DNA of 64,000 nt from an uncultured bacterium (GTDB lineage: Bacteria; Fidelibacterota; Marinisomatia; Marinisomatales; TCS56): positions 28,733-92,732 of the forward strand of contig CAYPJE010000007.1 in assembly GCA_964410945.1 (NCBI GenBank), read 5' to 3'. Of this stretch, positions 12,227 through 60,688 are shown piece after piece. The notes under the pieces are model-generated. The model saw only the letters and a program-made list of their open reading frames with translations. It was not told the DNA's origin and made no database searches. The stretch's first letter is position 1; each line of letters opens with the position of its first letter. The position numbers and the translations under genes are program-made.

Positions 12227-12246
12227 ATCTATTTAATTCCAGATTT

Positions 12247-20903: not shown

Positions 20904-20907
20904 CCCG

Positions 20908-40147: not shown

Positions 40148-40165
40148 TTTTTCCTCTATTTGATT

Positions 40166-41659: not shown

Positions 41660-41766
41660 TTTACTAATCCCCGCAATAATTTGTACAGTTTACCGCCGCC
41701 CTTGGTCGGAATGCAAGAGAAAGTTATTAATAATAAGAAATTAACGAAACGTACTTATTCTAAAAA

Positions 41767-41925: not shown

Positions 41926-41935
41926 ATCCAATTTC

Positions 41936-42706
41936 TCATTGGCTTTTGGTCCAGCGGTCGATGGCCGCTCGCACGGAACGGGTCATTTCCCTGGTGAAAT
42001 CGGCAGAGAATTTCATGCTGTAGATATGCTGTCCGAAATTGGTGGCATTCCCATGGAATTGCCGGGGGCTGCGCTCGGTTAGCATTTCCCGGTGCACTTC
42101 CGGGTTGAATCTCTGATAGGTGTTTTCGTGGAGAATGTATTCCTTGGGATAGCGGGGCTGCAGTTTTTTGGGCGGTTTTGGATTTTTCGGGTAACCGAGA
42201 CAAAGCATGGTGATCAGAAAAACATAGGGTGGCAGGTCGAACAACTGCTGATGGAATTCATAATTCTCCATAATATCGCCGATATAGCAGGAGCCGATCC
42301 CCAGTGCTTCTGCGGCAATCACCGCATTCTGGGCGGCGATCAGGGCATCACAGCAGGCCAGCAGCAAATCTCCTTCGGCAGGAGTACGTAATTCCTGGTT
42401 ATTGTCCTGGCAGAATTTCGGTACTTCCGAGGCCATGAAGGCATCCCACCAGCGTTGGTAATCAGCCAGAAAAACCAGCACAAGGGGTGCCTGGGCGATA
42501 AAGGGCTGATGATCGCAGGAAGCCACCAGTTTTTCCTTCATCATCTGGTCGCTGACCCGGATTATGGAATACAGCATCAGGTTCCCGGCCGTAGGGGCCC
42601 GGAAGGCGGCGGTCAGAATCTGATCCTGGTGTTCGGGATCGATTGGCCGGTCCTGGTAGGCGCGGACCGAATGGCGTTTTAAAATTGTATCAATGGTTTC
42701 ATTCAT
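41936..42706 (-). CDS. nitroreductase-family oxidoreductase
   Basis: HSVRAY...RAPTAGNLM signature. Length 256 aa. Confidence 0.85.
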   Translation of the reverse strand: MNETIDTILKRHSVRAYQDRPIDPEHQDQILTAAFRAPTAGNLMLYSIIRVSDQMMKEKLVASCDHQPFIAQAPLVLVFLADYQRWWDAFMASEVPKFCQDNNQELRTPAEGDLLLACCDALIAAQNAVIAAEALGIGSCYIGDIMENYEFHQQLFDLPPYVFLITMLCLGYPKNPKPPKKLQPRYPKEYILHENTYQRFNPEVHREMLTERSPRQFHGNATNFGQHIYSMKFSADFTREMTRSVRAAIDRWTKSQ

Positions 42707-42866: not shown

Positions 42867-44003
42867 TCAGATTTTAATGTAAATCTTTTTCCGGTCCAGC
42901 CAGTACAGGATCAGCCACCACATCATGATATGGCTGAGGGCGAACAGGAGGGATCCGTTCAGGTTGCCGGCCAGTGGCACAAAGACGGTCTTGTAAAGGT
43001 AAGTGTAGGCCGAAACGGTCTCTTCACCCAGGGTATATTTGATCCGGACGATTGTTTTAGCCCATAATCCGGAAGCGGCGAACACGAAGATTGAGTTGGA
43101 GCCGAAAATCACGAAGGGCCAGGCCAGCTTCTTATAACCTTTGATGTCGATTACCCAGATGCACAGGGTCAGGAACAGGGTCGCCAGTCCGCCGGTGAAA
43201 AGGACGTAGGAACTGGACCAGATCGGCTTGTTGATCGGGAAGAACAGGCTCCAGATCAGACCGGCAACCACCAGGGCGCCACCGACAATTAACAGCCGTT
43301 TGAGGTTTTTATGCTGGTCTTTGGCCGACTGGATCAGGGTACCGATCTGGTAACCCAGCATGGCGGTAACAATCGCCGGGAGGGTGCTGAATAATCCCTC
43401 AGGATCGAAAGCTACCCGCTCACCAGCCGCGTTCCGGTAACCGTGGTAGACATGATTGTCACCAAGAATTGCCAGGTCGAATTTATTGGCGAAGTTATGC
43501 ATCAGGCTGAAGGGTTCGGGGCCGGTGCCGCCGATCCACATAATCAGCCAATAACCGACCAGGATTGAACCACCGACAATCAGCTGCTTCTTCTGTGGCA
43601 GCCACAGGACCAGCAGGGCGGCGATGCCATAGGAGAGGGCGATGCGCTGCAGTACTCCCATGATCCGGAATGATGAATAATCCCAGTCCTGGCGAATGAA
43701 AGGGAAGGCATTCAACAAGAGACCTATCACGAAAATTGATATCATTCGCCAGATAATCTTTTTGGCAGCCGGGGCAGTCAATTTATAATCGAATTTCTTG
43801 AATGAAAAGGCCATGGCCACACCAACGATGAAAAGGAAGAACGGGAATACCAGGTCGGTGGGTGTGCAACCGTTCCATTTGGCATGCCGGAGAGGGGCAT
43901 AGATATGTCCCCAGCTGCCCGGTGTATTTACCAGAATCATCAGGGCTATTGTCAGACCACGGAAGGCGTCCAGGGCCACAAAACGTTGTTGTTTTTCAAC
44001 CAT
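42867..44003 (-). CDS. DUF5009 / heparan-alpha-glucosaminide N-acetyltransferase-like polytopic membrane protein
   Basis: RFVALDAFRGLTIALMILVNTPGSW N-terminus and about 11 hydrophobic helices, as in the COG4299 family. Confidence 0.78.
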   Translation of the reverse strand: MVEKQQRFVALDAFRGLTIALMILVNTPGSWGHIYAPLRHAKWNGCTPTDLVFPFFLFIVGVAMAFSFKKFDYKLTAPAAKKIIWRMISIFVIGLLLNAFPFIRQDWDYSSFRIMGVLQRIALSYGIAALLVLWLPQKKQLIVGGSILVGYWLIMWIGGTGPEPFSLMHNFANKFDLAILGDNHVYHGYRNAAGERVAFDPEGLFSTLPAIVTAMLGYQIGTLIQSAKDQHKNLKRLLIVGGALVVAGLIWSLFFPINKPIWSSSYVLFTGGLATLFLTLCIWVIDIKGYKKLAWPFVIFGSNSIFVFAASGLWAKTIVRIKYTLGEETVSAYTYLYKTVFVPLAGNLNGSLLFALSHIMMWWLILYWLDRKKIYIKI

Positions 44004-44006
44004 TAT

Positions 44007-45806
44007 CTACTCCTGGTTGGCTCTTTTCTTTCCAAATTCAGGATCGATGGGCAGCCATTTAATCATGACCAGTCCGGGAATCGTGCACAGCAGCACCCAG
44101 AGGAAAAACATCTGGTAGCCGATCTGTTCCTGCAGCCAGCCGCTGAACATGCCGGGTATCATCATACCGAGGGCCATAAAGCCCGTACAGAGTGCATAAT
44201 GGGCGGTCTTATGCTTGCCTTCGGCCACGGTTATCATAAACAGCATGTAGGCCGTGAAACCGAAACCGTAGCCGAATTGTTCGACGGCCACACAGGATGC
44301 GATCAGGGCAAAGCTGTCCGGTTGGGCATAGGAGAGGTAGACGTAGACCACATCAGGCAGTTTCATTGCCAGGGCCATCCACAGGATCCAGAATTTCAGT
44401 CCATGCTTGGCGGCCATGAAACCCCCTACGATTCCTCCCAGGGTAAGGGCCAGGGCGCCGAGAGTGCCGTAGATGAAGCCATACTGGCCGGTGGTCAGGG
44501 CCATACCGCCGGCTTCGATCGTATCGAGCATAAACAGGGGAGCTACCTTAACCAATTGGGCCTCGCCGAAACGGTAAATCAGGATAAATGAAATTGTGAG
44601 AACAATCTTTTCCTTGGTGAAAAAGGCTTTAAATACTTCCAGGAAATCGGTCAGGAAATTGCTGGTCTCACCATGAACCGGCAGGTCGCCATCCGGGCGC
44701 GGCAGCATAAAACGGTGATAGATGAAGAATACAATGAACATGCCGCCCATGATGAAAAAGGTCAGCATCCAGGACAGGGGAATGTTACCGGCTGTTGCCT
44801 TATAAACTGCAAAAGTTGGTTGCTTCAGTTGTGGGTCCAGTTTGACCACCGCTATGGCCGGTTTATTCCAGTCAGTTGTTGTGAAAACCAGACGAGTATC
44901 GGTGACCATGGCGATGCTTTTATCTCCGGAACTCTGGCCGAAATTGACGACTACGTCCTCATCTGTGGTGGGTTTTTGTGACAGGCCAATCAGGTATACG
45001 CCGATATTACCGGTTGTGTTATCATCATTAATACCGATATTTGGCAAGATATCATTAAAGTATATATTTAAATCTTCAGTAGTACCGCGGTTACTGTTCC
45101 AGCGGTTGGCGAAACTCACTAGTGAATCGACCTGGGTGGCTGAACGGGCGGCTAGCGGGATCGCCAGATTTTCCGGGTATGTTTGTATTTGGAGGGCGCC
45201 ATCTTGAGCGGTGTAATCAACTGTCTGAAAATCGATCAGTTCGCCCTGCTCAACACCCTGGACGGCCGAAACAGTGGTCTCAACACTGGGCAGTCCGGTA
45301 GTGCTTTCCATAAACCCGGCAAACATCACCAGGACACCCTGGGCGAAGATAATGGCAATCCGGTAGAAGGTACTGCGGATACCTACGAACCAAGCCTGAT
45401 CATGCCTGGAAAGACCGAGCATATAGAAGCCATCGGCGGCGATATCATGGGTGGCTGAACTGAAAGCCAGGAGCCAGAAGAAGGCCAGGGTTAACTTGAA
45501 GAAGCCCGGCACGGGAATTGTGAGGGCCACACCGGCCAGGCCGGCTCCGATCATGACCTGCATGATAACAATCCACCAGCGCTTGGTTTTCAGGATATCG
45601 ACAATCGGACTCCAGAGGGGCTTAATTACCCAGGGCAGATACAGCCAACTGGTGTATAAAGCAATTGCAGCATTGGAAATACCCATTCGTTTGTACATTA
45701 CCACTGAGATAAGCATCACAACAGCATAGGGTATACCTTCAGCAAAATAGAGGGAAGGAATCCAGAACCAGGGTGATCGTTTTTTAGCGGTCGACGTATT
45801 GCTCAT
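44007..45806 (-). CDS. ampG: AmpG-like MFS muropeptide permease with large central hydrophilic insert
   Basis: The WFWIPSLYFAEGIPYAVV and LPWVIKPLWSPIVD blocks are typical of AmpG-type MFS. It is 599 aa because of a soluble segment of about 175 aa (roughly aa 168-345). Confidence 0.75.
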   Translation of the reverse strand: MSNTSTAKKRSPWFWIPSLYFAEGIPYAVVMLISVVMYKRMGISNAAIALYTSWLYLPWVIKPLWSPIVDILKTKRWWIVIMQVMIGAGLAGVALTIPVPGFFKLTLAFFWLLAFSSATHDIAADGFYMLGLSRHDQAWFVGIRSTFYRIAIIFAQGVLVMFAGFMESTTGLPSVETTVSAVQGVEQGELIDFQTVDYTAQDGALQIQTYPENLAIPLAARSATQVDSLVSFANRWNSNRGTTEDLNIYFNDILPNIGINDDNTTGNIGVYLIGLSQKPTTDEDVVVNFGQSSGDKSIAMVTDTRLVFTTTDWNKPAIAVVKLDPQLKQPTFAVYKATAGNIPLSWMLTFFIMGGMFIVFFIYHRFMLPRPDGDLPVHGETSNFLTDFLEVFKAFFTKEKIVLTISFILIYRFGEAQLVKVAPLFMLDTIEAGGMALTTGQYGFIYGTLGALALTLGGIVGGFMAAKHGLKFWILWMALAMKLPDVVYVYLSYAQPDSFALIASCVAVEQFGYGFGFTAYMLFMITVAEGKHKTAHYALCTGFMALGMMIPGMFSGWLQEQIGYQMFFLWVLLCTIPGLVMIKWLPIDPEFGKKRANQE

Positions 45807-45818
45807 ATGTGATCCTTA

Positions 45819-47132
45819 TCAGGAGTAGAGGTTAACCAGACGGCTGCCCGGATAATAATGTTTTAAAATATTCTCGGTATGGTAGCCCCTGAGAGCCATT
45901 CCCAGAGCACCGATCTGGCAGAGCCCGGCACCATGTCCCCAGCCGGCTCCCCGCAATATAAATCTGGTTGGTATTTCATCACCTTCGGTCTCAATATAGA
46001 AGGCTGAGCTGTAAAGGAAGCTGGGATGCATGACCTGCCTAATTCGGTATTCACTGTCAACTACCACTGATCCGGGATTACCGGACTCATCAAGATATTC
46101 AATCTTTATTTTATTCAGGCGCCCCGAACCACCCCGGTTGAGAGGATGAACGGCTGTAATAGCACCGGCATCAAGGTCAAGTTTTGAATTGAGCATACTG
46201 GTCAGTTCATCCTGTGAATAGGCGAATTCCCAGCGGAAATACTGGCCTTCTTCATCGACGCCCCCGATATATTTGGTCAAACCTTCCTCCGGAACGACCT
46301 GGGGGCTGCAAAAGGTTTTCAAATCAGCATCGACCCACTGTTTCAAATTCTCTTCTTCCGATAATGGCAGGTTATCCCACGTGAAGGTATGGGGGGCATC
46401 AATAATATTCTGCATGTAGGGCAGGGGATCACCCTCCCATAATGTTTCATAGGTTTCCATCATACCGCCACAGGATTTGGAATAGCGGGCGTCGCAGATT
46501 TGATCTTCGTACATGATGACCTGTCCACGGGTGGATACGGCGCCTTGAATGGATTGGGGGGTCAGGTTCCCCGTACCGTGATAGCGCTGACAGCAGTCGT
46601 CGTTGCAGACATCAAAACCCTGCTTGACATGTTTCTGCTCCACATTAGCCAGCATCCAGGCCCGCGCCACGATGGTCTGCGACTCGATCAGGGCAATCGG
46701 ACATTCGGCACTCATCTCCGAGGTGGCCACGCACATGAGATATTGCTCGATGGGAAGCTCGTTGATTGCCAGGATGTTACCATCCACAACACGGATTTCC
46801 AGATCACCCAGCAGGCTTACATCAATAGCCTTTTTCCAGTGAAAATCCCGTCCGGCGATCACATTTTTTACGATCATGGGATTGTCCAGGTTATTGGCCG
46901 TCGGTGAACGTTTGATATCGATCTTATGAACCCGCAGGTCACCGATACATAATTCACCATCCCGGATGGCAATCGTCAGGCTGTCGCCGGATTGCTTGAA
47001 TTTACTCGGGAACACATTATAAATATTGGGATCGGGGAAGACGATGCTTATTTCTTCCTGTTGATCCTCTGGCAGGGTTATTCCGACACGGAGCAGTGGT
47101 TCGGAAGAAGGAATGAGGCCTTTTGTTAGCAT
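45819..47132 (-). CDS. SpoIID/LytB-domain protein without signal peptide
   Basis: ARAWMLAN...FDVCNDDCCQRYHG...YSKSCGG SpoIID-domain motifs. The N-terminus MLTKGLIPSSEPLLRVGITLPEDQQEE is not hydrophobic. Confidence 0.78.
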   Translation of the reverse strand: MLTKGLIPSSEPLLRVGITLPEDQQEEISIVFPDPNIYNVFPSKFKQSGDSLTIAIRDGELCIGDLRVHKIDIKRSPTANNLDNPMIVKNVIAGRDFHWKKAIDVSLLGDLEIRVVDGNILAINELPIEQYLMCVATSEMSAECPIALIESQTIVARAWMLANVEQKHVKQGFDVCNDDCCQRYHGTGNLTPQSIQGAVSTRGQVIMYEDQICDARYSKSCGGMMETYETLWEGDPLPYMQNIIDAPHTFTWDNLPLSEEENLKQWVDADLKTFCSPQVVPEEGLTKYIGGVDEEGQYFRWEFAYSQDELTSMLNSKLDLDAGAITAVHPLNRGGSGRLNKIKIEYLDESGNPGSVVVDSEYRIRQVMHPSFLYSSAFYIETEGDEIPTRFILRGAGWGHGAGLCQIGALGMALRGYHTENILKHYYPGSRLVNLYS

Positions 47133-47133
47133 A

Positions 47134-48336
47134 TCAGGTCCGCTTTTTGAAGTTCAGGTAGGCATCGATGGCGGCACCCATGGCCGGTGCTTCCCGAAGG
47201 TTCGAGCTGGTAATTAAATCCGGGTTGAATTCTCCTTTAACCAGATAGTGGTCTTTAAATTCAGCGGCCAGGTCTGAATCGGCGATCATTTTCGCCAGGT
47301 CAGCCATCAGTGGTTTATAGAACAGGGCAGTATCCCTGGATGATTCCAGCAGCGTACCCAATCGCTGGCCGATAATAATCCCTGATAACAATGTCCCCTG
47401 GAAAGGATGGTCGGATTCCAGATTGTCCCGGTTGGGATTCATGAATTCAAAATTGTTTTTCCAACCGGAGTAGATTGTGCTGATTCGTTCGAAAAGCAGT
47501 TGCGCCAGATAGTGGCTGATATCATTGTATGTATCCAGGGCCGCACTTTCGCCGGCCAGGGCCCGTTTCAATATTTGATCGGGATAAACCTGCTGAATAT
47601 TCAAGTCTTCAATACTGATTCCCGAATAGGTGCTGTAGATCGACTGAATACCGCCTGCTGAGGAATAGCGTTCCAGGGAGATATCCTTGTCATTCTTCAT
47701 TTCCCAGGTCTTGGCCAGCCAGGTTTTGGTCTGGTCCAATGGCATGAGGCTGCCGTTCAGTTTCAGGGCATCGGCCGTTCCTGTGCCGCCGCCCAGGTAG
47801 TAGGCATTTTCGGTTTTCTTGAAACCGCCGCCATCGGAATATTCTTCACCGATACCGCAATAATCAGCGTCACTGCCGATCCGGAAAATCGGGGCTGCCA
47901 GATCGATCCCCATGATTTCCACCGCCGCTTCAACCGTGGCGGCGTAATCGGGAATGCGGGGACCATTCAATAATACGGCTATCCCACGCTGGTCGGACGT
48001 CTTAAGGCCCGGCATTCCCAGTCCCAGGAGTAATTTACTGCCCGGATATTCACTGGCGATTCCGGCAATCACGGCGTTGCAGGCCTGGGTGTAGGCCCGG
48101 GATTGTCTTATTTCGTCCTTGCCGGGACTGATTGTACCGCTGCCGTATTCATTCAATTGTAATTTGATATCGGCCGATTTGAAATTTTCATCGAATTCAG
48201 GGTAATCACGGTAGCTTTTCTGTATATTGGTACTGCCCAAAGAAAACCGGAATTGATCGATATCCAGATCGATCGTCCACCCGCTGATTTTGGTAGCGCC
48301 ACCGTCCAAGCCCACCAACAGTAGCTTTTCAGTCAT
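47134..48336 (-). CDS. BadF/BadG/BcrA/BcrD-type ATPase (N-acetylglucosamine-kinase-like sugar kinase)
   Basis: LLVGLDGGATK phosphate-1 motif and YLGGGTGTAD, an ASKHA fold. Confidence 0.75.
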   Translation of the reverse strand: MTEKLLLVGLDGGATKISGWTIDLDIDQFRFSLGSTNIQKSYRDYPEFDENFKSADIKLQLNEYGSGTISPGKDEIRQSRAYTQACNAVIAGIASEYPGSKLLLGLGMPGLKTSDQRGIAVLLNGPRIPDYAATVEAAVEIMGIDLAAPIFRIGSDADYCGIGEEYSDGGGFKKTENAYYLGGGTGTADALKLNGSLMPLDQTKTWLAKTWEMKNDKDISLERYSSAGGIQSIYSTYSGISIEDLNIQQVYPDQILKRALAGESAALDTYNDISHYLAQLLFERISTIYSGWKNNFEFMNPNRDNLESDHPFQGTLLSGIIIGQRLGTLLESSRDTALFYKPLMADLAKMIADSDLAAEFKDHYLVKGEFNPDLITSSNLREAPAMGAAIDAYLNFKKRT

Positions 48337-48338
48337 AT

Positions 48339-49886: not shown

Positions 49887-50021
49887 TGTGAATTAAATTG
49901 ATTCCTGTTATTTAAAGCAAAATTACTACCCTGGATATTACACTGACCGGAATGAAATTGTCAGTTACCATTTTTGAAATATTTAACCGAACTTTACCCC
50001 TTACAAAAAAGGGAGAAAACA

Positions 50022-51998
50022 ATGGCCAGGCGTTTCTTTGCGGGAGTTCTTTTTCTATTTACTGCCCTTTCAGCGGCTCAAGTTGACACGGTTACCGCGG
50101 TCAGCTATGCCATGGATCGGGAAATGACCACGGTGGTGGTGACACCGGAGGATTATCAGGATAGCCAGACTGAATTCCCGGTGGTTTATATTCTTCATGG
50201 CTACAGCGGTGGTCCTTTTGACTGGATTAATCATATGGATCTGAGGACGCTTGCTGATCTGCACCAGTTCATTCTGGTCTGTCCCGATGGTGATTATAAC
50301 AGCTGGTATTTTGACAGTCCACTGGTAAAAAAGAGCCAGTATGCCACCTGGGTCGGGCGGGAGTTGGTGCGCTGGATCGATGATAATTATCCTACAGTCG
50401 ACCGACAGGACGGCCGGGCCATAACCGGTCTGAGTATGGGGGGACACGGTGCCCTTTATCTGACGCTGCAGAATCCCGAACAGTATTGCGCCGCCGCTAC
50501 CATGAGTGGTGTAGTGGACCTGACAGCTACTACCAAGAAATATGAACTGGCTGAAAAGATCGGTTCATACGAAAAGAATCCGGAGCGTTGGAACCAGGGT
50601 TCACTGGTCGAACAGGTTCCGTCCCTGGCAGAGCTTGATATAGGTCTGCTAATCGATTGCGGAACCGAGGATGCCTTTATCGAACACAATCGTGATCTGC
50701 ACCAGCGGCTGGAAGCGGCCGGCGTGGAGCACAATTATATTGAGAAACCCGGGGGGCACAGTTGGGATTACTGGACCGCAGCTTTGCCGGAACATCTGGA
50801 TTATTTCACCAGATATATTGATCGTGAGCCGGAAATCGAACCAATCGACCAACGGGCTGCCAATCTTATGTGTCTGATGGAACAGGCCATCTCCGATTCA
50901 GCCTGGCCCGGCGGGGTTCTGCTGGCCCGGAGTAAGGGTGAGACGATCGTATTTGATGCCACCGGTTACCATACCTACGACCGCAAAATAAGCACCCGCC
51001 GTGATGATATCTTCGATCTGGCATCGATCACAAAAGTCATTTCCACCACCTCGGCAGCAGCCAAACTGCATGAAAACGGCCTGCTTGTCCTGGACGCAAA
51101 AGTCGTGCAATACATTCCTGAATTCAGGGGTAAGAAATTTTTCAGGGATCGTGCCAAAAAACAGGTCACGGTGAAACATCTGCTGACCCATACCACCGGT
51201 TTACCACCCTTCAAGCAGTACTACAGGATTGATGGTTCAATCGAGGACCGTGTGGCGGAAATCTTTGCTACCAGTCTGGACCGGAAACCAGGATTGAAAA
51301 CGGTTTATTCCGATATTGGAATAATTACCATGGGAAAAATCGTCGAACAGCTCACGGGAATGGGACTGGACGAATATGTTGATCAAGAGGTATTTACACC
51401 ACTGGGAATGGCTGCCACCGGTTATACGCCCTGTAAGAGAAAACTGTATCGGATCGTGCCGACCGAAATCGATCCGGATGGCAAATTAGTTCATGGTTAT
51501 GTCCACGATGAAAATGCTAACAGCCTGGGTGGCGTGGCCGGCCATGCGGGATTGTTTTCCACCGCCGAAGATCTGGCCCGTTTTGCCCGGATGATGCTGA
51601 ACGAAGGAGAACTTGACGACATCCGGATTTTCCAACCGGAGACGGTGGAACTGTTTACGAAGCGAGCCAACGTAATCGAAGGCAGTTCGCGCTGCCTGGG
51701 CTGGGACAGTCCCAGCGATAATGCCTCCGGCGGGGTCTACATCAGTGATAACGCTTTCGGGCACACCGGATTTACCGGGACGTCGCTGTGGATCGATCCC
51801 GATAACGATATCGTGGTTGTTCTGCTGACCAATGCTGTTCATCCGAACCGCTCCTGGAAATCGCCGAATTATTTTGACTGGCGCCAGCGGATTCATTCCG
51901 CTGTTTATGAAGAGCTGGGCTTCGATGTTCAGAATCCAAATCTGACCTGGCGCCAGCGCTGGCAATCTGCCGAATCAACAGATGATTCAACACAATAG
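50022..51998 (+). CDS. secreted fusion of esterase-D-type alpha/beta hydrolase and beta-lactamase-family serine hydrolase
   Basis: Signal peptide MARRFFAGVLFLFTALSAAQ. The N-terminal half has GLSMGGHGA (GxSxG) and the C-terminal half has ASITKVIST (SxxK) and HTGFTG. ATG at 50022 after GGGAGA. Confidence 0.8.
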   Translation: MARRFFAGVLFLFTALSAAQVDTVTAVSYAMDREMTTVVVTPEDYQDSQTEFPVVYILHGYSGGPFDWINHMDLRTLADLHQFILVCPDGDYNSWYFDSPLVKKSQYATWVGRELVRWIDDNYPTVDRQDGRAITGLSMGGHGALYLTLQNPEQYCAAATMSGVVDLTATTKKYELAEKIGSYEKNPERWNQGSLVEQVPSLAELDIGLLIDCGTEDAFIEHNRDLHQRLEAAGVEHNYIEKPGGHSWDYWTAALPEHLDYFTRYIDREPEIEPIDQRAANLMCLMEQAISDSAWPGGVLLARSKGETIVFDATGYHTYDRKISTRRDDIFDLASITKVISTTSAAAKLHENGLLVLDAKVVQYIPEFRGKKFFRDRAKKQVTVKHLLTHTTGLPPFKQYYRIDGSIEDRVAEIFATSLDRKPGLKTVYSDIGIITMGKIVEQLTGMGLDEYVDQEVFTPLGMAATGYTPCKRKLYRIVPTEIDPDGKLVHGYVHDENANSLGGVAGHAGLFSTAEDLARFARMMLNEGELDDIRIFQPETVELFTKRANVIEGSSRCLGWDSPSDNASGGVYISDNAFGHTGFTGTSLWIDPDNDIVVVLLTNAVHPNRSWKSPNYFDWRQRIHSAVYEELGFDVQNPNLTWRQRWQSAESTDDSTQ

Positions 51999-52008
51999 GG
52001 GGTAAGAA

Positions 52009-53742: not shown

Positions 53743-54275
53743 TCCTGAAATTCGGTAATTATTGTCTCCGGCCATGGATAATTGCTGATGTCCACGCTGT
53801 TACCCGGTACGCCAACAATCGTAAAATCTGGCTCAATCTGCGGGATGGGTTTCCCAACCCCTATGCTGAGAAAGATGCCCGTGAATTCATCGAACGGGCT
53901 ATGAAACTTGAGCTGCCAACCCTGTTTGCCATCGCTAATTCGAAAGAGGCTATTGGTAGCATCGGACTGATGCTCAAGACCGATATTCACCGCCATACGG
54001 CGGAACTTGGCTACTGGCTTGGCGAACCGTTCTGGGGGCAGGGAATCACCACCGAAGCGGTGAAGACAATCTCGGCCTTTGCATTTGAAAAATTCAACCT
54101 GGTTCGAATCCATGCCGAACCGTTTGTCACCAATCAGCCCTCGATCAGGGTGCTGGAGAAAGCCGGATACAAATATGAAGGACGAACGGAGGTCAGTGCT
54201 TTCAAGGATGGGAAATTACTGGACCAGGTAATCTATGCCAGGACAAGGAAAGTTAAAAATGAAGAATTACAGTAA
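53739..54275 (+). CDS. GNAT-family N-acetyltransferase (RimJ/RimL-like)
   Basis: LGYWLGEPFWGQGITTEA acetyl-CoA-binding motif. ATGA overlap with the transporter. Confidence 0.85.
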   Translation: MILKFGNYCLRPWIIADVHAVTRYANNRKIWLNLRDGFPNPYAEKDAREFIERAMKLELPTLFAIANSKEAIGSIGLMLKTDIHRHTAELGYWLGEPFWGQGITTEAVKTISAFAFEKFNLVRIHAEPFVTNQPSIRVLEKAGYKYEGRTEVSAFKDGKLLDQVIYARTRKVKNEELQ

Positions 54276-55410
54276 CCCGGCCCGGGTTTTGGCCAGATTG
54301 ACGGAAAAAGAATCACTGCGGGTGATCGGCTTGATGTCCGGTACTTCCATGGATGGCCTGGATATCTGCCTGGCCCAGGTAAGCCTGGAAAATGAAAATC
54401 TGGGCTATGAGATTGAAAATTTCACCTCGATCTCATTTCCCGAAAACCTTCGTGATCAGATCCGGGTATCGCTGACCGGTACAACCCAGGATGTTTGTGC
54501 CCTGAATTACGATCTGGGTCGCTGGTATGCCGATACGGTTTACAATTACCTGATGGAAAACGGGATTGAATTTCCTGATCTTGTTGGGAGCCACGGACAG
54601 ACAATCCATCATGTGAGCGGCCACTCGACCCTGCAGATCGGGGAACCATCTTATCTGGCTCAGAAACTTGGTGTGCCGGTTATCTCCGATTTCCGGGCCG
54701 CCGATGTGGCTGCCGGCGGCACGGGAGCCCCACTGATACCGCGAATCGATGAATGGCTGTTCCGGGATTCCAGTCGGGCACGGATAGCACTGAATATCGG
54801 TGGTGTGGCCAATGTGACGTTGATACCACCGGCAGGGGAAGGAACCGTAATCGGCTTCGATACCGGTCCCGGCATGGCCCTGCTGGATGAAACATTCCGG
54901 TCGGCACGAGGTGGAGGTTACGATCCTGGTGGTAAAATGGCGCTTACGGGGGTTATTGATACAGTCCTGGTGGAAGAATGGATCAATGATGATTTTATTA
55001 CCGCATTGCCGCCAAAATCGACGGGCCGGGACCAATACGGCCTGGAATGGTTGAATTCCCACCGCGCTGAATTATTGTCGTTGGAAATTAATGACCGCCT
55101 GGCCACCCTGGCAGCTTTCACAGCCGACAGCATATATGCGAATTGCCGTTCATTCCTGGAACAATATTCAGCCGATTACCTGATCGTTGGTGGCGGCGGT
55201 GTCCATCATGGCTTGATAATGGAGCGCCTGTCGGAATCGTTGGCACCGTCTCGGGTGGTTACCAGCGAGCATTTTGGTCTCGATCCCGACGCCAAGGAAG
55301 CCTTGGGATTTGCCATTCTGGCGGTGGCCAATGTGAGGGGTGTCCATGGCAATTTACCTACCGTTACCGGCGCCGACCGTCCTGTTATACTGGGTAAGCT
55401 TAGCCTCTGA
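54259..55410 (+). CDS. anmK: anhydro-N-acetylmuramic acid kinase
   Basis: GLMSGTSMDGLD N-terminal hallmark, SHGQTIHH and DFRAADVAAGGTGAPL. An alternative ATG lies at 54235. Confidence 0.9.
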   Translation: MKNYSNPARVLARLTEKESLRVIGLMSGTSMDGLDICLAQVSLENENLGYEIENFTSISFPENLRDQIRVSLTGTTQDVCALNYDLGRWYADTVYNYLMENGIEFPDLVGSHGQTIHHVSGHSTLQIGEPSYLAQKLGVPVISDFRAADVAAGGTGAPLIPRIDEWLFRDSSRARIALNIGGVANVTLIPPAGEGTVIGFDTGPGMALLDETFRSARGGGYDPGGKMALTGVIDTVLVEEWINDDFITALPPKSTGRDQYGLEWLNSHRAELLSLEINDRLATLAAFTADSIYANCRSFLEQYSADYLIVGGGGVHHGLIMERLSESLAPSRVVTSEHFGLDPDAKEALGFAILAVANVRGVHGNLPTVTGADRPVILGKLSL

Positions 55411-55413
55411 TCA

Positions 55414-56202
55414 ATGATTGATCGCTGGAAATTAATACTTTCTACAATGCTGGTGGTGGCTGGTTTATCCTGTGTTAAACCTGATCCACCCAATCATGTG
55501 CTCCATCATGGAGGTATAATCCGCGGCGATACTACAAAACCTGAACTGGCTCTGGTATTTACCGGTGGTGATTATGCCGATGGTGGTATGTATATCGCCG
55601 ATGAGCTTGAAAAATACTCCGTAAAGGCCGGTTTTTTCTTCACCGGTGATTTCTATCGCGATCCGGCAAATACAGAGGTTATCAGGCGATTAATCGATGA
55701 TAAGCACTACCTGGGACCTCATTCGGACCGGCATCTGCTGTACTGCAGCTGGGAAAACCGCGATTCCCTGTTAGTTAGCCGGGAGGAATTCGTAGCTGAC
55801 ATGCAGGCCAATTATGAGTTGATGTCACAGTTCGGGATCGAACCGGGTTCGGCTCCTTATTTCATTCCGCCCTATGAATGGTATAATGATTCCATTGCGG
55901 CCTGGGCCCGGGAGGAAGGCTGGGTATTGATAAATAATACACCGGGTACTTTATCGCACGCCGATTACACGGTTCCAGCAATGAGCTACTACCGCAGCTC
56001 CCGGGATATCTGGGACAGTATTATTAATTTTGAACAGCAGGAACCAAACGGCTTGAATGGTTTCATGTTGTTGATCCATATCGGAACCCACCCTGACCGT
56101 ACAAATAAATTTTACCGGAGGTTGGGAGAAATGATTGAGTATCTGAAGGAAAACGGGTATTCCTTCAAACGCGTTGACCAATTACTGGAGGGCAAGCAGT
56201 GA
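55414..56202 (+). CDS. polysaccharide deacetylase-like (CE4/NodB-type) lipoprotein
   Basis: Lipobox-like VVAGLSC, plus FTGGDYADGG and LGPHSDRH blocks consistent with a divergent NodB fold. Confidence 0.65.
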   Translation: MIDRWKLILSTMLVVAGLSCVKPDPPNHVLHHGGIIRGDTTKPELALVFTGGDYADGGMYIADELEKYSVKAGFFFTGDFYRDPANTEVIRRLIDDKHYLGPHSDRHLLYCSWENRDSLLVSREEFVADMQANYELMSQFGIEPGSAPYFIPPYEWYNDSIAAWAREEGWVLINNTPGTLSHADYTVPAMSYYRSSRDIWDSIINFEQQEPNGLNGFMLLIHIGTHPDRTNKFYRRLGEMIEYLKENGYSFKRVDQLLEGKQ

Positions 56203-57980
56203 GACTGAAACATTTGATATTGTTACTGATATTTATCAGTGGACTGGCAGGGGCCAAACAGGATATCCATTTTCGAATAAATCAGGTGGGTTATCTTCCT
56301 TTCGAATCCAAGATTGCCATACTGTTTTCAGATAAGGCCTTGAAACGTGCCCGGGTTGAGCTGATCGATACCGAGTCTGGGAAGGTAGTCTGGGGACCTC
56401 AGCGCGTAGGTGTGAACCAGGGTTCCCATGGTGAATATGATTATCATTATCGAGTAGATTTCAGTGCTTTTGACCGTCCGGGAAGGTACCAACTGGTCAT
56501 CCGTAAAAAGGAGGTCGAATCCCTGGAATTCAGCATTGCTGAAAATATTTATTATGAGCCTCAGAATATTGCGTTGTCCTATATCCGCCAGCAGCGCTGC
56601 GGCTACAATCCGTTTTTCGATGAATATTGCCACCGGCAGGATGGAAAAACGATGTATGGTCCCATGCCGGACAGCACTTTTATCGATGTATCCGGTGGCT
56701 GGCACGATGCCGGTGATCACCTGCGTTACCTGATGACCTCCGGGAATACGGTCTGCCGTTTGCTGTTGGCCTACCGGGAGGCCAAGCTCAAGTTCCCCGA
56801 TAAAGTGGATGCGGTGGGTAAGCCTGGCAGCAACAACATCCCCGATATACTTGATGAAGCCAAATGGGGCCTGGAATGGATGCTTAAGATGCACCCGGAG
56901 CCGGATCAGTTGTTTCACCAGGTGGCCGATGACCGCGATCATATCGGATTCAAACTGCCCTTTGCCGATTCCGCCGACTATGGCTGGGGACCGGGGAGTT
57001 ACCGTGTGACTTATTTTGCCTCCGGGGAGCCCCAGGGCCTGGGTAAATACCAGAACACTTCCACCGGAATCGCCAATCTGGCGGGACGTTATGCCGCCGC
57101 CATGGCCATGGCCAATCAGATCTGGCGGGAACTTGGCGATTCAACCTTTGCGGAAACCTGCCTGCAGGCCGGAATAGAACTATACCGGATGGGATTGGAT
57201 CAGCCCGGTTGCCAGGAGGGAACACCCTGCCGGGCACCTTATCGCTATCATGAAGTGACCTGGGCCGATGATATGGAGTGGGGAGCGGCGGAAATGTACC
57301 GGGCCACTGGTGATGAAACTTATCTGGAAGAAGCTATCCGGTTTTCACGATTGGCGGGGACCGATCCCTGGATGGGCGCCGATACGGCCCGCCATTATGA
57401 ATATTATCCGTTCATGAATATGGGGCATTATGCCCTATTTGACCTGGTGGACGAACAATTGCAGGATACGTTAATCGGTTATTATCGGACCAGCATCGAA
57501 CGGGTGGCCGAGCGGGCTGGTAATTTCGTATATGGTACGGGACATCCATTTATCTGGTGTTCGAATAACCTTGCTTCAGCTTTTATAAATCAGTGTCTGC
57601 TGTACGAAAAAATTAGTGGTGACAAATCATATCGTGAACTGGCACTGGCGCACCGTGACTGGCTGCTGGGCCGTAATCCCTGGGGGGTAAGCCAGTTTGT
57701 GGGGATACCGTCCAGTGGCGGGGTGACACCGCTCTACCCGCATACGGCCGTGACCCTGGAATGGGATGTGCCGATCAATGGCGGATTGAACGATGGACCG
57801 GTATACGCTTCAATCTATGGCCGGCTGAAGGGGATACGGCTCTCACGGCCCGATCCCTATGCTGCATTCCAATCCGACCTGGTGGTATTCCACGATGATA
57901 TCTGGGATTATTCCACCAATGAACCCACCCTGGATGGGACAGCGGAAGCGCTGTTCTTTCTGATCCTAATGGCTAACTAA
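56199..57980 (+). CDS. glycoside hydrolase family 9 enzyme
   Basis: Signal peptide. DVSGGWHDAGDHLRY is the GH9 catalytic signature, and DDMEWGAAEMY and NEPTLDG are also GH9-like. Confidence 0.85.
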   Translation: MRLKHLILLLIFISGLAGAKQDIHFRINQVGYLPFESKIAILFSDKALKRARVELIDTESGKVVWGPQRVGVNQGSHGEYDYHYRVDFSAFDRPGRYQLVIRKKEVESLEFSIAENIYYEPQNIALSYIRQQRCGYNPFFDEYCHRQDGKTMYGPMPDSTFIDVSGGWHDAGDHLRYLMTSGNTVCRLLLAYREAKLKFPDKVDAVGKPGSNNIPDILDEAKWGLEWMLKMHPEPDQLFHQVADDRDHIGFKLPFADSADYGWGPGSYRVTYFASGEPQGLGKYQNTSTGIANLAGRYAAAMAMANQIWRELGDSTFAETCLQAGIELYRMGLDQPGCQEGTPCRAPYRYHEVTWADDMEWGAAEMYRATGDETYLEEAIRFSRLAGTDPWMGADTARHYEYYPFMNMGHYALFDLVDEQLQDTLIGYYRTSIERVAERAGNFVYGTGHPFIWCSNNLASAFINQCLLYEKISGDKSYRELALAHRDWLLGRNPWGVSQFVGIPSSGGVTPLYPHTAVTLEWDVPINGGLNDGPVYASIYGRLKGIRLSRPDPYAAFQSDLVVFHDDIWDYSTNEPTLDGTAEALFFLILMAN

Positions 57981-57992
57981 TCAGGTGAAAAG

Positions 57993-60587
57993 ATGAAAAA
58001 TAGAATTTTGCTTTCTGTGCTGTTTTTATTGGTAGCGGGCTGTATACCAACAGTAGTCAAGGACCAGAGTAATCCCTCCGGAGCGGATTTTGCCATTACC
58101 TGGCGGTTCTTGTACAATATCGATGGGGAAGATGAATTCCGTCAGGTCCTGACGATCAGGAACAACGGAGTAACGCCCCTTGGTTCCAACTGGACGCTGT
58201 ATTTCAATTTCATATACGGAATTGCACCGAACAGCGTATCGGAAACAATAGCGGTGACACGGATAAACGGGAATTATTACCGGATGAATCCAACAGCGTC
58301 TTTTCCGGGCATTGCCGCCGGTGAAGAAATTGAAGTCTGTTTCAATTCACACAGTGCTACGATCAATGCTGCCGCCATGCCGGCCGGCTTCTATTTTGTG
58401 TTCAATGATCAGGATGGGAATGCCAGTTCACCGCAGATTGTACAGGATGTGTCACTGGGAGCTCCGATCCTTCCGAAGCAGTCCCGGCGTGGCAGCCGGG
58501 ATGTTCTGGCGGTGCCTTCGGCCCAATCGCGGTACTATGAAAATCTGAATAATTATCAACCCGTCGATGGTCAGTTTCCGCGGTTGGTGCCGCAGCCGGT
58601 TGAAGTTAGGGTACGTGATGGAAATGCCGTAATAGATAAAACTACGGCGATTACTTGTGATGAAGAATTAAGTAATGAAGCAAGTTTCCTGGCTGATTTT
58701 CTGGCACTGTTAACTGGTGTACAACCGATAGTAATTAACAGTGGTGAGGGCAGCATGATCCGGTTGAAACTGGAACAATTCGAAGGTGGTTCCGAGGCCT
58801 ACCAGCTCAGCATCGATCCCGAAGATGGGATATCGATCAACGGCAATTCACCGGCCGGTGTGTTTTATGGTGTTCAAAGCTTGATCGCTGCAATGCCCGT
58901 TGGTATTTTTAAATCCGGGGCCGAGCGGATCGAAATTCCCGCCACGGTTATCAAAGATTATCCCCGGTTCGGTTATCGTGGAATCCATCTGGATGTGGCC
59001 CGGAATTTCCACTCCATGGAGACGGTGAAGAAATTTATCGACCTGATCGCCTTCTATAAATTGAACAAGCTGCACCTTCACCTTACCGACGATGAAGGCT
59101 GGCGGCTGGAGATCGAAGCCCTGCCGGAGCTGACTGAAGTTGGCGGGCGCCGGGGACATACTGTCAACGAACTCGACCGGTTAGTGCCCACTTTCGGAAC
59201 CTGGATCAAACCCGGCGTTGCTGATGGGTATTATTCCAGAGCCGATTATATCGAAATCCTGCGTTATGCCAACCGGCGCCATATTGAGGTCATACCTGAA
59301 TTCGATATGCCGGGACACGCCCATGCGGCCATTGCGGCTATGGAGGCCCGTTATCACAATTTAAAGGCAGCAGGTGATGTCAAAGCAGCAGAAGAATTTC
59401 GTCTTGTTGATCCTGCTGATGAATCGGATTACCGGTCGGTTCAGGGCTGGGATGACAATGTGATCGATGTGGCCCTGCCGTCCACTTATCGTTTTCTGGC
59501 TACGCTCTTTGATGAAGTGATTGCCATCTATCGTGAAGCCGGTGCACCCCTTAATATGATCCATATCGGCGGTGACGAGGTGGCGCGCGGCTCCTGGGAC
59601 GGATCGGCGGCTTGCAGGGAATTGATTGCGGACGATAACGATATTCATGACTTCCATGATCTGGCGCCCTATTTCATGGAGCGCGTGCACGGTATGCTGC
59701 AAGAACGCGGTTTAGGCCTGGCCGGCTGGGAGGAGATCGCCCTCAGAGAAGAATTAATTGACGACAAGAGGGTGAATTACCCCAACGAAAACCTGGTGGA
59801 TGAAAATGTCTATCCCTATGTCTGGAACAATGTCGCCGGCTGGGGCGGGGAAGACCTGGGTAACCGTCTGGCCAATGCCGGTTTTAAGGTGGTTCTGTCC
59901 AGTGCCACCAACCTGTATTTTGATCTGTCCTACGATAAGGATTACCGGGAGCCTGGTCTGTCGTGGGCCGGGTTTGTGAATACCCGCAAAACCTTTGAGT
60001 TTACGCCCCATAATATCTACAATTGCATCACCACCGACCGGATGGGCAATCCGGTGGACCTGGAGCAGTACGCCGACCGGGCCCGCTTGACGGAGGAGGG
60101 AAAGCAAAACATTGTTGGCATTCAGGGACAGTTGTGGAGCGAATTGCTGAACTCCACCGAGCGGCTGGAATACATGGCCTTTCCCAAGCTGATTGCCCTG
60201 GCGGAACGGGCCTGGTCCCAACAACCGGAATGGGCGGTCATCAATGATGTTGACCTGCGGACAGCCGGACTTGAAGCCGCTTGGAATGAATTCGCCTACT
60301 GGGTTGGCCGGCGGGAACTGCTGCGCCTGGATCATTTGTATGGCGGCGTCCAATACCGGATCCCGCCACCGGGAGCAGTGATCGAAGATGGTTTGTTAAA
60401 AGCCAACTGCCTCTACCCGGGACTGGAAATCAGATACACCACTGACGGGAGTGACCCTGATATGAATGCATCGATTTACAGTGCACCGGTTTCTGTAGAC
60501 GGTACTGTTGAAGGTACAATTAAGATACGAGCTTTTAATGGGATTGGAAGGAGTAGTTATACGACGGTAGTGGATGCGAAACACTAA
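57993..60587 (+). CDS. GH20 beta-N-acetylhexosaminidase lipoprotein
   Basis: Lipobox LVAGC. FGYRGIHLDVARNF, HLHLTDDEGWR and HIGGDEV (catalytic D-E pair). C-terminal IRYTTDGSDP chitobiase-type domain. Confidence 0.9.
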   Translation: MKNRILLSVLFLLVAGCIPTVVKDQSNPSGADFAITWRFLYNIDGEDEFRQVLTIRNNGVTPLGSNWTLYFNFIYGIAPNSVSETIAVTRINGNYYRMNPTASFPGIAAGEEIEVCFNSHSATINAAAMPAGFYFVFNDQDGNASSPQIVQDVSLGAPILPKQSRRGSRDVLAVPSAQSRYYENLNNYQPVDGQFPRLVPQPVEVRVRDGNAVIDKTTAITCDEELSNEASFLADFLALLTGVQPIVINSGEGSMIRLKLEQFEGGSEAYQLSIDPEDGISINGNSPAGVFYGVQSLIAAMPVGIFKSGAERIEIPATVIKDYPRFGYRGIHLDVARNFHSMETVKKFIDLIAFYKLNKLHLHLTDDEGWRLEIEALPELTEVGGRRGHTVNELDRLVPTFGTWIKPGVADGYYSRADYIEILRYANRRHIEVIPEFDMPGHAHAAIAAMEARYHNLKAAGDVKAAEEFRLVDPADESDYRSVQGWDDNVIDVALPSTYRFLATLFDEVIAIYREAGAPLNMIHIGGDEVARGSWDGSAACRELIADDNDIHDFHDLAPYFMERVHGMLQERGLGLAGWEEIALREELIDDKRVNYPNENLVDENVYPYVWNNVAGWGGEDLGNRLANAGFKVVLSSATNLYFDLSYDKDYREPGLSWAGFVNTRKTFEFTPHNIYNCITTDRMGNPVDLEQYADRARLTEEGKQNIVGIQGQLWSELLNSTERLEYMAFPKLIALAERAWSQQPEWAVINDVDLRTAGLEAAWNEFAYWVGRRELLRLDHLYGGVQYRIPPPGAVIEDGLLKANCLYPGLEIRYTTDGSDPDMNASIYSAPVSVDGTVEGTIKIRAFNGIGRSSYTTVVDAKH

Positions 60588-60688
60588 AAAATATCAAGTA
60601 AATATTTGAATTAGGAGAAATCATTATCAGATACTTGCTATTCATGCAGTTTTATTAATACCTTTGACATTATATGGGGGAAATAATA

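Follow-up and report, generated by a model that had tools for sequence, protein, structure and literature searches.

A probable muropeptide and amino-sugar salvage locus in a Marinimicrobia/Fidelibacterota bacterium combines a conserved cytoplasmic gene trio with a clade-specific shell

Introduction

Do the genes at positions 42867-60587 of a 64-kb stretch of DNA from an uncultured bacterium of the Fidelibacterota (contig CAYPJE010000007.1; the whole 64-kb stretch is called the window below) form one pathway for the recovery of cell-wall fragments, and what might the less familiar among them contribute to it? An earlier reading, made from the letters of the DNA alone (the sequence-only reading), had proposed an 18-kb supercluster of two divergent operons for peptidoglycan and amino-sugar salvage, with several members that have no place in the textbook pathway. 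The analysis presented here indicates that the locus probably does serve muropeptide and amino-sugar salvage, and that it is built of two evolutionary layers. The core layer consists of a family GT2 glycosyltransferase, a ROK-like sugar kinase, a SpoIID/LytB-domain protein without signal peptide, an AmpG-family permease or a paralogue of a sodium:solute symporter (SSS), and a MurT/NagX-like membrane protein; it is common to three phyla of the Fibrobacteres-Chlorobi-Bacteroidetes (FCB) group. The second layer, a divergent operon of mostly secreted or lipoprotein-type enzymes and an AnmK kinase, is far rarer.

Homologues of the kinase, the GT2 protein and the GH9 glycosidase of the window carry the source names Marinimicrobia, Neomarinimicrobiota or Fidelibacterota. 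A published account describes Fidelibacter multiformis, the only cultured member of the phylum, as unable to make peptidoglycan and as drawing its cell wall, carbon and energy from the muropeptides of other bacteria, and traces this muropeptide dependence to the ancestor of the phylum (PMC11652737). A related gene arrangement has been published for Tannerella forsythia, in which xanthan lyase, gtf, gtf, lytB, ampG, ybbC (NamZ1), murT, murK and murQ form a co-transcribed operon of nine genes (PMC5388701). For this ampG-murTKQ operon (Tanf_08345-08385) we draw on PMC5388701, PMC7670621 and the NamZ preprint (10.1101/2021.12.02.470905). The AmpG of T. forsythia imports disaccharides of N-acetylglucosamine (GlcNAc) with N-acetylmuramic acid (MurNAc) or its anhydro form, that is, GlcNAc-MurNAc and GlcNAc-anhMurNAc (PMC7670621). 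In the literature on this organism, both gtf genes are listed without an assigned function and lytB has no more than a putative role as a lytic transglycosylase; how the AmpG-imported fragments are processed is named as an open question (PMC7670621).

Results

The survey was anchored on the kinase family: a scan of genome collections gave 261 loci, of which the best 80, with one more, make up the 81 loci considered here. They stem from Marinimicrobia, Bacteroidales, Saprospiraceae and Calditrichota, and are labeled by L-numbers (e.g., L005). Window proteins were mapped onto these loci by tblastn, and positional frequencies were counted only over loci with enough flanking DNA. On this count the GT2 gene lies directly upstream of the kinase gene in 58 of 61 loci, and the SpoIID-like gene directly downstream of it in 55 of 74; these three genes are referred to as the trio, whose proteins are ~42-82% identical across phyla. 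AmpG comes next, after SpoIID, in 23 of 57 loci, and an SSS paralogue (40-44% identical to the SSS protein of the window) occupies the AmpG position, between SpoIID and the NagX-like gene, in 10 of 57, so that one or the other stands there in 33 of 57. The NagX/MurT-like gene closes the module in 14 of 40. Frequencies are much lower on the other side of the spacer, with a divergent beta-lactamase-fold gene in 10 of 38 loci, AnmK in 5 of 36, and GH9 or CE4 in 1 of 36. The complete rightward operon, including its GNAT gene (52-59% identity), is confined to the nearest relatives, L005-L008, which retain the divergent layout where their contigs reach far enough; in L010, the esterase-beta-lactamase fusion is divergent from GT2 and the contig ends there. 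Since the same arrangement was found again in independent assemblies and in related species, it is not the product of chance. The sequence-only reading had treated the 18 kb as one supercluster and had proposed a neighborhood survey across FCB-group genomes as a check. Such a survey finds the leftward module co-conserved across three FCB phyla, and splits the full 18 kb in two, the rightward genes being far rarer.

What the core keeps company with is more telling than the window by itself. NamZ was found around the core in 23 of the 81 loci (tblastn with the NamZ of L017; the window is not among the matches), an AmiA-like amidase in eight of 81, a Golvesin_C/Amidase_3-like protein of ~1000 residues in six of 81, AnmK in five loci, and MurQ-like genes in two. 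The latter (L054:500-1378 and L074:3308-4126) lie within 10 kb of the core module and encode proteins with 46-47% identity to an approximate Escherichia coli MurQ sequence; the L054 copy stands directly beside AnmK, and a NagX-like copy of 51% identity lies near the MurQ-like gene of L074, a Bacteroidales locus. Pfam checks of flanking genes, made on L052, L070, L084 and L017, illustrate the variety of orders: L052 (Bacteroidales) reads GT2, kinase, SpoIID, AmpG, NamZ and then an Amidase_3-like gene, and L070 (Calditrichota) reads NamZ, GT2, kinase, SpoIID, AmpG. This repeated, independent recruitment of peptidoglycan genes ties the core to muropeptide salvage far more strongly than the window alone could do. 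It also bears on the suggestion that the GT2, SpoIID and HGSNAT-like proteins stand in for MurQ, NagA and AmpD, which does not hold, as they occur together with MurQ in the T. forsythia operon, and elsewhere with NamZ, NagZ-type GH3 enzymes, amidases and MurQ.

Within the trio, the GT2 protein retains an intact DSDD in its C-terminal domain, where QLDSDD is invariant in the cross-phylum alignment (57-82% identity). The N-terminal domain has a degenerate DNR/NNQ instead of DxD, yet is strongly conserved. Both by sequence and by Foldseek with the AlphaFold model (pLDDT 84), the protein is best matched by glycosaminoglycan polymerases of two domains, the E. coli K4 chondroitin polymerase K4CP (2z86) and the Pasteurella heparosan synthase PmHS2 (8vh7), which are likewise soluble and likewise composed of two tandem GT-A domains. 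Identity to these is only 11-17%, and the global TM-score of ~0.3-0.4 indicates that the orientation of the domains differs; the family also departs from K4CP and PmHS2 in its N-terminal domain without canonical DxD, and in a context that points to salvage rather than to capsule synthesis.

The kinase has no Pfam or NCBIfam match (PF00480 is absent at E<=0.01), and its family profile found one weak match in the PDB, 3r8e (E 0.0024), so that a fold search was needed to place it. The top Foldseek matches of its AlphaFold model (pLDDT 89.7) are all ROK proteins, namely 3r8e, the N-acetylmannosamine kinase 2yhw and NagK 7p7i, and the fold is nearest to ROK-family N-acyl-hexosamine and glucose kinases. 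The motifs DGGATK, GLGMPG, GSDADYCG and GGGTG are invariant in the family and include the DxGxTK and GxGxPG patterns; the phosphate/ATP, catalytic and sugar motifs are all intact. A single Cys is invariant across the family, and the ROK zinc motif therefore seems to be absent. By source name, most of the 966 kinase homologues belong to Marinimicrobia. The "BadF-type" label that the protein had been given is accordingly replaced by ROK-like; MurK was rejected as well, as neither the sequence profile nor the fold gave a match of either kind.

The SpoIID-like protein passes the cut-offs of both of its family models (PF08486, 70 bits; TIGR02669, 169 bits against 83). The Glu of its "TSEM" motif aligns with the Glu of "SEM/GEM" in the SpoIID structures 4rwr/5i1t, which we take to be the catalytic residue, and its Cys-rich motif is kept and aligns with that of Clostridioides difficile SpoIID. 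Whereas the SpoIID lytic transglycosylase acts outside the cytoplasm on the sacculus, the window protein has neither signal peptide nor transmembrane (TM) segment; a hydrophobic leader is missing from 54 of 54 homologues, all of which start directly with the conserved ML-x-P-x-x-IP-x-x-EP-x-x-RVGI-x-LPED. From these features the protein is presumed to be a cytoplasmic lytic-transglycosylase-like enzyme. Hydropathy analysis likewise finds GT2, the kinase, GNAT and AnmK to be soluble and free of export signals, in agreement with the cytoplasmic placement already suggested for GT2 and SpoIID, and extends it to the kinase. In two Marinimicrobia, kinase and SpoIID-like protein form a single open reading frame (ORF), at L017:9941-12496 (851 residues) and in L026 (~10001-12500). 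Such Rosetta-stone fusions argue that the two proteins act together in the cytoplasm.

The last two genes of the leftward operon encode membrane proteins. The AmpG-like permease has 11 hydrophobic segments and, between TM6 and TM7 (residues ~170-340), a non-hydrophobic insert of ~170 residues without Pfam match. The NagX-like protein, also without Pfam match, has ~8 hydrophobic segments and aligns to human HGSNAT (8vkj, E 2.6e-26), with H40 falling on the catalytic His297 in the motif H-x-x-W-N-G...D-L-V-F-P. These features would suit a transmembrane enzyme that N-acetylates amino sugars with acetyl-CoA, or else a transporter of MurNAc. NagX itself is distantly related to TfMurT, and has been proposed to re-acetylate periplasmic glucosamine (GlcN) (PMC9007349). 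In the intergenic region that separates the two operons, a promoter-like CTGACA-N18-TAATAT for the leftward operon lies at 49964-49935 on the minus strand, preceded by AAAATGGTAA, and the motif AAAATGGTAACTGACA...GTAATAT is kept in the equivalent spacers of five relatives (L005-L008 and L010). A scan for sigma-70 promoter and terminator consensus sequences gave no enrichment over shuffled sequences (21 found against 22 expected); of the promoter-like sites, only the one conserved across relatives was retained.

Table 1. Features of the salvage locus, with coordinates counted from the first letter of the window.
Feature	Coordinates	Strand	Basis of assignment
MurT/NagX-like polytopic HGSNAT-family membrane protein, 378 aa	42867..44003	-	NF046061, HGSNAT alignment
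AmpG-family MFS muropeptide permease, 599 aa	44007..45806	-	TIGR00901, MFS_1
SpoIID/LytB-domain protein without signal peptide, 437 aa	45819..47132	-	PF08486, TIGR02669
Divergent ROK-like ASKHA sugar kinase, 400 aa	47134..48336	-	Motifs, AlphaFold, Foldseek
Soluble GT2 with two tandem GT-A domains, 515 aa	48339..49886	-	Pfam Glycos_transf_2 in two stretches
Divergent intergenic region, 135 bp	49887..50021	.	Promoter-like element for leftward operon
Secreted esterase (PF00756) + beta-lactamase-fold (PBP4B/AmiE-like) fusion	50022..51998	+	Pfam Esterase 7.7e-34, Beta-lactamase 5.4e-62
Sodium:solute symporter (SSS), 577 aa	52009..53742	+	PF00474 1.3e-34
Cytoplasmic GNAT acetyltransferase, RimJ/RimL type, 178 aa	53739..54275	+	Acetyltransf_3 1.3e-27
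Anhydro-N-acetylmuramic acid kinase AnmK	54235..55410	+	PF03702 7.5e-95
CE4 deacetylase-like lipoprotein	55414..56202	+	Polysacc_deac_1 5.6e-9
Secreted GH9 with N-terminal Ig-like domain	56199..57980	+	Glyco_hydro_9 2.2e-71, CelD_N
Chitobiase-type GH20 beta-N-acetylhexosaminidase lipoprotein, four domains	57993..60587	+	Pfam CHB_HEX, GH20b, GH20, CHB_HEX_C

The ORF list of the window places 12 ORFs across this region, five leftward and seven rightward (Table 1). The first rightward gene most likely starts at ATG 50022 (public gene calls, identical metagenomic contigs, 658 residues), and because the public gene calls place its start there, the spacer measures 135 bp (49887-50021). Gene number, coordinates and spacer are thus as first proposed. 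The same holds for nearly all families, by Pfam, NCBIfam or alignment to solved structures: on the left, GT2 in two stretches, SpoIID/LytB, an AmpG-family MFS and an HGSNAT/NagX-like protein; on the right, esterase plus Beta-lactamase with a signal peptide, SSS, GNAT, AnmK, CE4, GH9 and GH20. Hydropathy shows a signal peptide in GH9 and in the esterase fusion, and lipoprotein-type signals in CE4 and GH20.

In the esterase/beta-lactamase fusion, the signal peptide begins at M17 of the long ORF. The beta-lactamase-fold domain has its best matches in PBP4B (best NCBIfam model, 191 bits against a cut-off of 385) or family-VIII esterases, and reaches 50 bits in bla_class_C, against a cut-off of 415. 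Its orthologues (56-62% identity) form the C-terminal part of proteins of ~980-1010 residues, which in their N-terminal part resemble the L084 GH3. These GH3-beta-lactamase fusions occur in Marinimicrobia at L084 (3226-6171), L040, L043, L047, L051, L065, L066, L075 and L080; both parts were seen in eight of these loci and the GH3 part alone in L047, where the contig is cut, and the NagZ-type GH3 call by Pfam was made for L084 only. Where the GH3 fusion occurs, the esterase has a gene of its own (~270 residues); in the clade of the window it is fused and the GH3 part is gone. From its domains, the window protein is presumed to be a periplasmic de-O-acylase combined with a muropeptide amidase or peptidase. 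Litzinger et al. in 2010 reportedly described a beta-lactamase fold for AmiE. The pairing with GH3 echoes the secreted NagZ/AmiE pair of Bacillus subtilis (PMC8054146) and the Rhodothermus RmNag3 fusion (PMC6987092). By this analogy, the beta-lactamase-fold domain probably provides a periplasmic amidase; fusion of its orthologues to NagZ-type GH3 makes a stem-peptide-removing activity likely, and so weakens any argument from the want of an AmpD-type gene. Among the following genes, the SSS protein is a candidate importer of a monomer such as (anh)MurNAc, GlcNAc or GlcN, and AnmK scores above its equivalog cut-off (NF007148, 395.6 bits against 387).

The tail of the rightward operon is made up of CE4, GH9 and GH20. 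CE4 has its best NCBIfam match in PdaA (TIGR02884, 3.8e-11, below the cut-off), and its PDB matches (2j13, 1w17/1ny1) make PdaA-type MurNAc deacetylases the closest solved relatives. It keeps HSxxH, has motif 1 altered to VFTGGD, and carries a lipobox-like ...VVAGLSC. The GH20 protein has the catalytic motif HIGGDE (HxGGDE) and the lipobox LLVAGC, matches 9joq (1.3e-160) in the PDB, and probably supplies the GlcNAc-removing step. GH9 has DAGD and the C-terminal NEP motif, and endoglucanase 3x17 is its best PDB match; the Vibrio exo-glucosaminidases 6gdt, 5dgr and 3h7l were not among its 20 PDB matches at E<=1e-10. Membership in the Vibrio exo-glucosaminidase subgroup (VC0615/PBPRA0520) was rejected on sequence grounds, although a functional analogy is still conceivable. 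GH9 orthologues with 56-74% identity come from Marinimicrobia, Calditrichota, KSB1, Balneolales and Acidobacteriota. One (L087) belongs to a set of GH2, GH9, DUF5009 (NagX family), ROK, MFS, SIS and amidohydrolase genes, and another (L088) adjoins a YdjC-family gene; YdjC proteins include chito-oligosaccharide deacetylases. A plain cellulase was not supported, since none of the six distant neighborhoods contained cellulose-related partners, and we suspect an exo-beta-glucosaminidase-like role. A side route of deacetylation, cleavage and reacetylation by CE4, GH9 and the NagX-like protein, for chitosan-like oligomers as well as for peptidoglycan, is plausible from these families: CE4 is closest to PdaA-type enzymes, the NagX-like protein keeps the catalytic His, and two of the six distant GH9 loci have either the NagX-family/ROK/SIS/amidohydrolase set or YdjC.

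Several genes of the established pathway were sought in the window. Pfam scans of 49 of its ORFs, 33 of them beyond the initial set, found no SIS/MurQ, NagB, Amidase_2/AmpD, S66/LdcA or cytoplasmic NagZ (GH3), and precomputed Pfam annotation shows no SIS/MurQ, NagB, AmpD or LdcA in the 10 kb past its right end. A tblastn search with an approximate E. coli MurQ query had no match in the window and strong matches at two other loci (the MurQ-like genes above), so that the standard etherase step does exist in this lineage, though outside the window, as far as these matches tell. NamZ gave no Pfam match among the window ORFs, and no tblastn match with the NamZ of L017. Two sets of amidohydrolases were considered for NagA and rejected, the gene at 6272-7678 for its pyrimidine/purine-catabolism context and the genes at 13554-17830 for their size and a sub-threshold NagA_N match; the latter are two adjacent amidohydrolase-family genes, the first of 985 residues with two amidohydrolase stretches. 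That the window has no MurQ, NagA/NagB, AmpD or Ldc-type genes, as the sequence-only reading stated, agrees with the Pfam scans and the MurQ search. Its further statement, that AmpG, AnmK and a hexosaminidase make up the recycling core, stands for AnmK, probably stands for the AmpG-family permease, and fails for the hexosaminidase, which is a periplasmic chitobiase-type GH20 lipoprotein and not the cytoplasmic NagZ of E. coli.

Around the locus, a 497-residue beta-lactamase-family gene (40166-41659) and two nitroreductase genes flank the cluster at 39629-42706, an adjacency kept in identical contigs (L001); a nitroreductase match also lies downstream in L005, and a 432-residue beta-lactamase-family gene flanks the cluster at L091:16381-17679. 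Directly after GH20, a 933-residue protein with a C-terminal sorting domain of the type IX secretion system (60674-63475; guanine-cytosine (GC) content 0.43-0.45) has no recognizable catalytic domain. Farther away, two xanthine-dehydrogenase-type subunit sets (2Fe-2S, FAD, molybdopterin), a 1092-residue dihydropyrimidine-dehydrogenase-like protein and an amidohydrolase at 651-11119 are probably a purine/pyrimidine catabolic cluster, within which an IS200-like Y1 transposase gene (2424-2870) sits in a patch of low GC (0.415 against ~0.50 around it). A glycyl-radical enzyme (PFL-like, 792 residues) with its radical-SAM activase (20109-23271) is consistent with an anaerobic lifestyle.

Discussion

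The conserved core and the peptidoglycan genes that recur beside it support the view of this region as a peptidoglycan and amino-sugar salvage locus, and likewise the view that it contains non-textbook members with unsettled biochemistry. In the sequence of events that these assignments suggest, GH20 would remove terminal GlcNAc in the periplasm, where the esterase/beta-lactamase-fold fusion would strip acyl groups and stem peptides, and CE4 and GH9 would deal with ends that are de-N-acetylated; the amino sugar set free may then be re-acetylated by the NagX-like protein. By extension from the T. forsythia permease, AmpG would import GlcNAc-(anhydro)MurNAc into the cytoplasm, whether or not it carries peptide, and the SSS protein would take up monomers. 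Once inside, anhydroMurNAc would be converted by AnmK to MurNAc-6-phosphate, and GNAT would acetylate an amine. The trio would act on the imported glycan in the same compartment, as its lack of export signals, its tight linkage and the kinase-SpoIID fusion suggest. As a working guess, the SpoIID-like protein may cleave the MurNAc-GlcNAc bond, the ROK-like kinase may phosphorylate the released N-acetylhexosamine, and GT2 may transfer GlcNAc to or from uridine diphosphate (UDP); MurQ, NagA and NagB would act from elsewhere in the genome.

Comparison with known systems places the window between several of them. It shares with the T. forsythia operon the order of glycosyltransferase, second "gtf", lytB, ampG and, later, a MurT-type HGSNAT-family protein. 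It differs in having no NamZ, MurK (BadF-type) or MurQ, all of which belong to the T. forsythia operon, and in adding a divergent AnmK operon with SSS, GNAT, CE4, GH9, GH20 and the esterase-beta-lactamase fusion; T. forsythia lacks AnmK (PMC7670621). At the second "gtf" position, both the window and the surveyed Bacteroidales loci have the ROK-like kinase, and the gene order of other Bacteroidales and Calditrichota suggests that the second "gtf" of T. forsythia may really be such a kinase. With the exo-lytic rescue system of B. subtilis (murQ-murR-murP-amiE-nagZ-namZ; PMC8054146), the window has in common that secreted exo-acting enzymes would trim fragments before import, and its relatives have in common a beta-lactamase-fold protein paired or fused with a GlcNAc-releasing glycosidase; in the window, GH20 of chitobiase type takes the place of GH3, and NamZ, phosphotransferase-system transporters and MurQ are missing. 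A bona fide AnmK and a probable permease of the AmpG family link it to the anhydromuropeptide recycling of E. coli and Pseudomonas, from which it differs by lacking cytoplasmic NagZ, AmpD, LdcA, MurQ, AmgK and MurU, and by its additional cytoplasmic GT2, ROK-like kinase and SpoIID-like protein. With NagX systems (PMC9007349) it shares an HGSNAT-family protein with conserved catalytic His, in this case one whose score falls well short of the NagX equivalog cut-off and whose gene lies in a muropeptide operon, outside any NagA, NagP and NagK context. With the Vibrio GH9 enzymes (PMC6096475) it shares a GH9 with N-terminal Ig-like domain, here adjoining a deacetylase, which is not close to them in sequence.

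A number of points weigh against reading the locus as one for muropeptide salvage. Which genes are present, to which families and folds they belong, what catalytic motifs and localization signals they carry, and how they are linked across phyla are matters of observation; all substrates and reactions we infer. Since the 64-kb window yielded no MurQ, NagA or NagB, the last catabolic steps are an assumption. Both membrane proteins of the core score below their model cut-offs, the AmpG-like protein in TIGR00901 (E 4e-44 in two stretches, with MFS_1 also matching; 151 bits against 350) and the NagX-like protein in NF046061 (E 2e-51; 175 bits against 480). The GT2-kinase pair often occurs without adjoining SpoIID or AmpG (e.g., L004, L021-L025), and a pair that so often stands alone could have its primary role outside muropeptide import. 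The equivalence of Tanf_08350/08355/08360 to the window proteins is drawn from gene order in other Bacteroidales and not from alignment. On the rightward side, GH9 orthologues stand among unrelated genes in four of six distant loci, the nearest solved GH9 structures are endoglucanases, and the classical chitobiase architecture of GH20 means that the tail may act on oligomers of chitin or chitosan and not on peptidoglycan.

This last point leads to the possibility that the locus, or at least the CE4, GH9 and GH20 tail with the NagX-like and SSS proteins, mainly takes up chitin or chitosan oligosaccharides, the peptidoglycan genes being neighbors that share the same amino-sugar end products. Chitobiase would split (GlcNAc)2, CE4 would de-N-acetylate, GH9 would release GlcN, and NagX would re-acetylate it for import. 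The full Serratia-chitobiase architecture of GH20 (1qba 2.9e-117) fits this well, as do the GH9 orthologues found in the NagX-family/ROK/SIS set of L087 and beside YdjC in L088. NagX-family proteins are often encoded in chitin operons, five bacteria require them to use glucosamine (PMC9007349), and Vibrio GH9 enzymes prefer (GlcN)2 over cellobiose (PMC6096475). Yet neither chitinases (GH18 or GH19) nor NagA, NagB or NagK came up in the Pfam scans of the window, and AnmK, AmpG, SpoIID and the PBP4B/AmiE-like domain are all specific to peptidoglycan; the gene of the NagX-like protein belongs to the conserved ampG module and not to the GH9 operon, and the nearest solved relatives of CE4 are PdaA-type MurNAc deacetylases rather than chitin-oligosaccharide deacetylases. 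We regard this chitin or chitosan reading of the locus as unlikely. It is also conceivable that the two operons are unrelated, such that only the rightward one is concerned with salvage and the leftward GT2-kinase core is engaged in building or modifying a glycan or glycoprotein of the envelope, with AmpG and SpoIID merely traveling along. The T. forsythia operon has indeed been called "glycosylation related" and is regulated by GppX (PMC5388701); GT2 resembles biosynthetic polysaccharide polymerases, the GT2-kinase pair is often found without AmpG or SpoIID, and the complete rightward operon is linked in close relatives only. What makes this quite improbable is that NamZ, the NagZ-type GH3 fusion, amidases, AnmK and MurQ have been recruited repeatedly beside the core in three phyla and in different orders, that AmpG (or SSS at its exact place) and the MurT-like protein lie inside the operon, and that a kinase-SpoIID fusion exists; the annotated neighbors, moreover, showed no flippase, polymerase or undecaprenyl-linked genes.

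A role in beta-lactam sensing or resistance, linked to AmpG and AnmK, with beta-lactamase-family genes as effectors and muropeptide import as the inducing signal, would account for the three beta-lactamase-family genes in or near the cluster (50022-51998, 40166-41659 and L091:16381-17679), and AmpG is classically required for AmpC induction (PMC7670621). We give it very little credence: the Pfam scans of the window ORFs found neither an AmpR-type regulator nor AmpD, the fused domain is best described as PBP4B or a family-VIII esterase rather than class C, and the fusion of its orthologues to a GH3 glycosidase points to the processing of substrates. Muropeptide and amino-sugar salvage thus probably remains the best account of the locus.

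Within the salvage reading, the trio allows a more specific proposal, which we put forward tentatively and with more doubt than confidence. Across the FCB group, the three proteins may constitute an uncharacterized cytoplasmic route for AmpG-imported fragments of the GlcNAc-MurNAc type, distinct from the NagZ/AmpD/AnmK route, and in the clade of the window CE4 and GH9 may additionally replace the exo-muramidase NamZ by way of a de-N-acetylated sugar. As to the chemistry, one guess is an intramolecular transglycosylation coupled to phosphorylation, as the kinase-SpoIID fusions hint; another is a reverse transfer of GlcNAc onto UDP, by which the energy of the bond would be saved. The linkage of gtf and lytB to ampG was already known, having been published for T. 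forsythia, and the phylum is known for its muropeptide dependence; the question of what the trio does is sharpened here by the ROK-like assignment of the kinase, the dual GT-A architecture of GT2, the absence of export signals throughout and the fusions of kinase and SpoIID.

Conclusions

The central question raised by this locus concerns the role of the conserved cytoplasmic trio, and T. forsythia had already posed it. Oceans, sediments and the human mouth and gut harbor Marinimicrobia and other members of the FCB group in abundance, and at least some of them feed on the cell-wall fragments of others; the trio supplies the three best candidates for the processing of AmpG-imported fragments in these lineages. 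The shell of esterase/amidase-like fusion, CE4, GH9 and GH20 illustrates how salvage loci are re-tooled, perhaps in response to cell walls that are de-N-acetylated or O-acetylated, or to marine particles with chitosan-like substrates. With the chemistry of the trio solved, a major route of peptidoglycan recycling outside Proteobacteria and Firmicutes would be complete, and targets against a MurNAc-auxotrophic periodontal pathogen could come to light.

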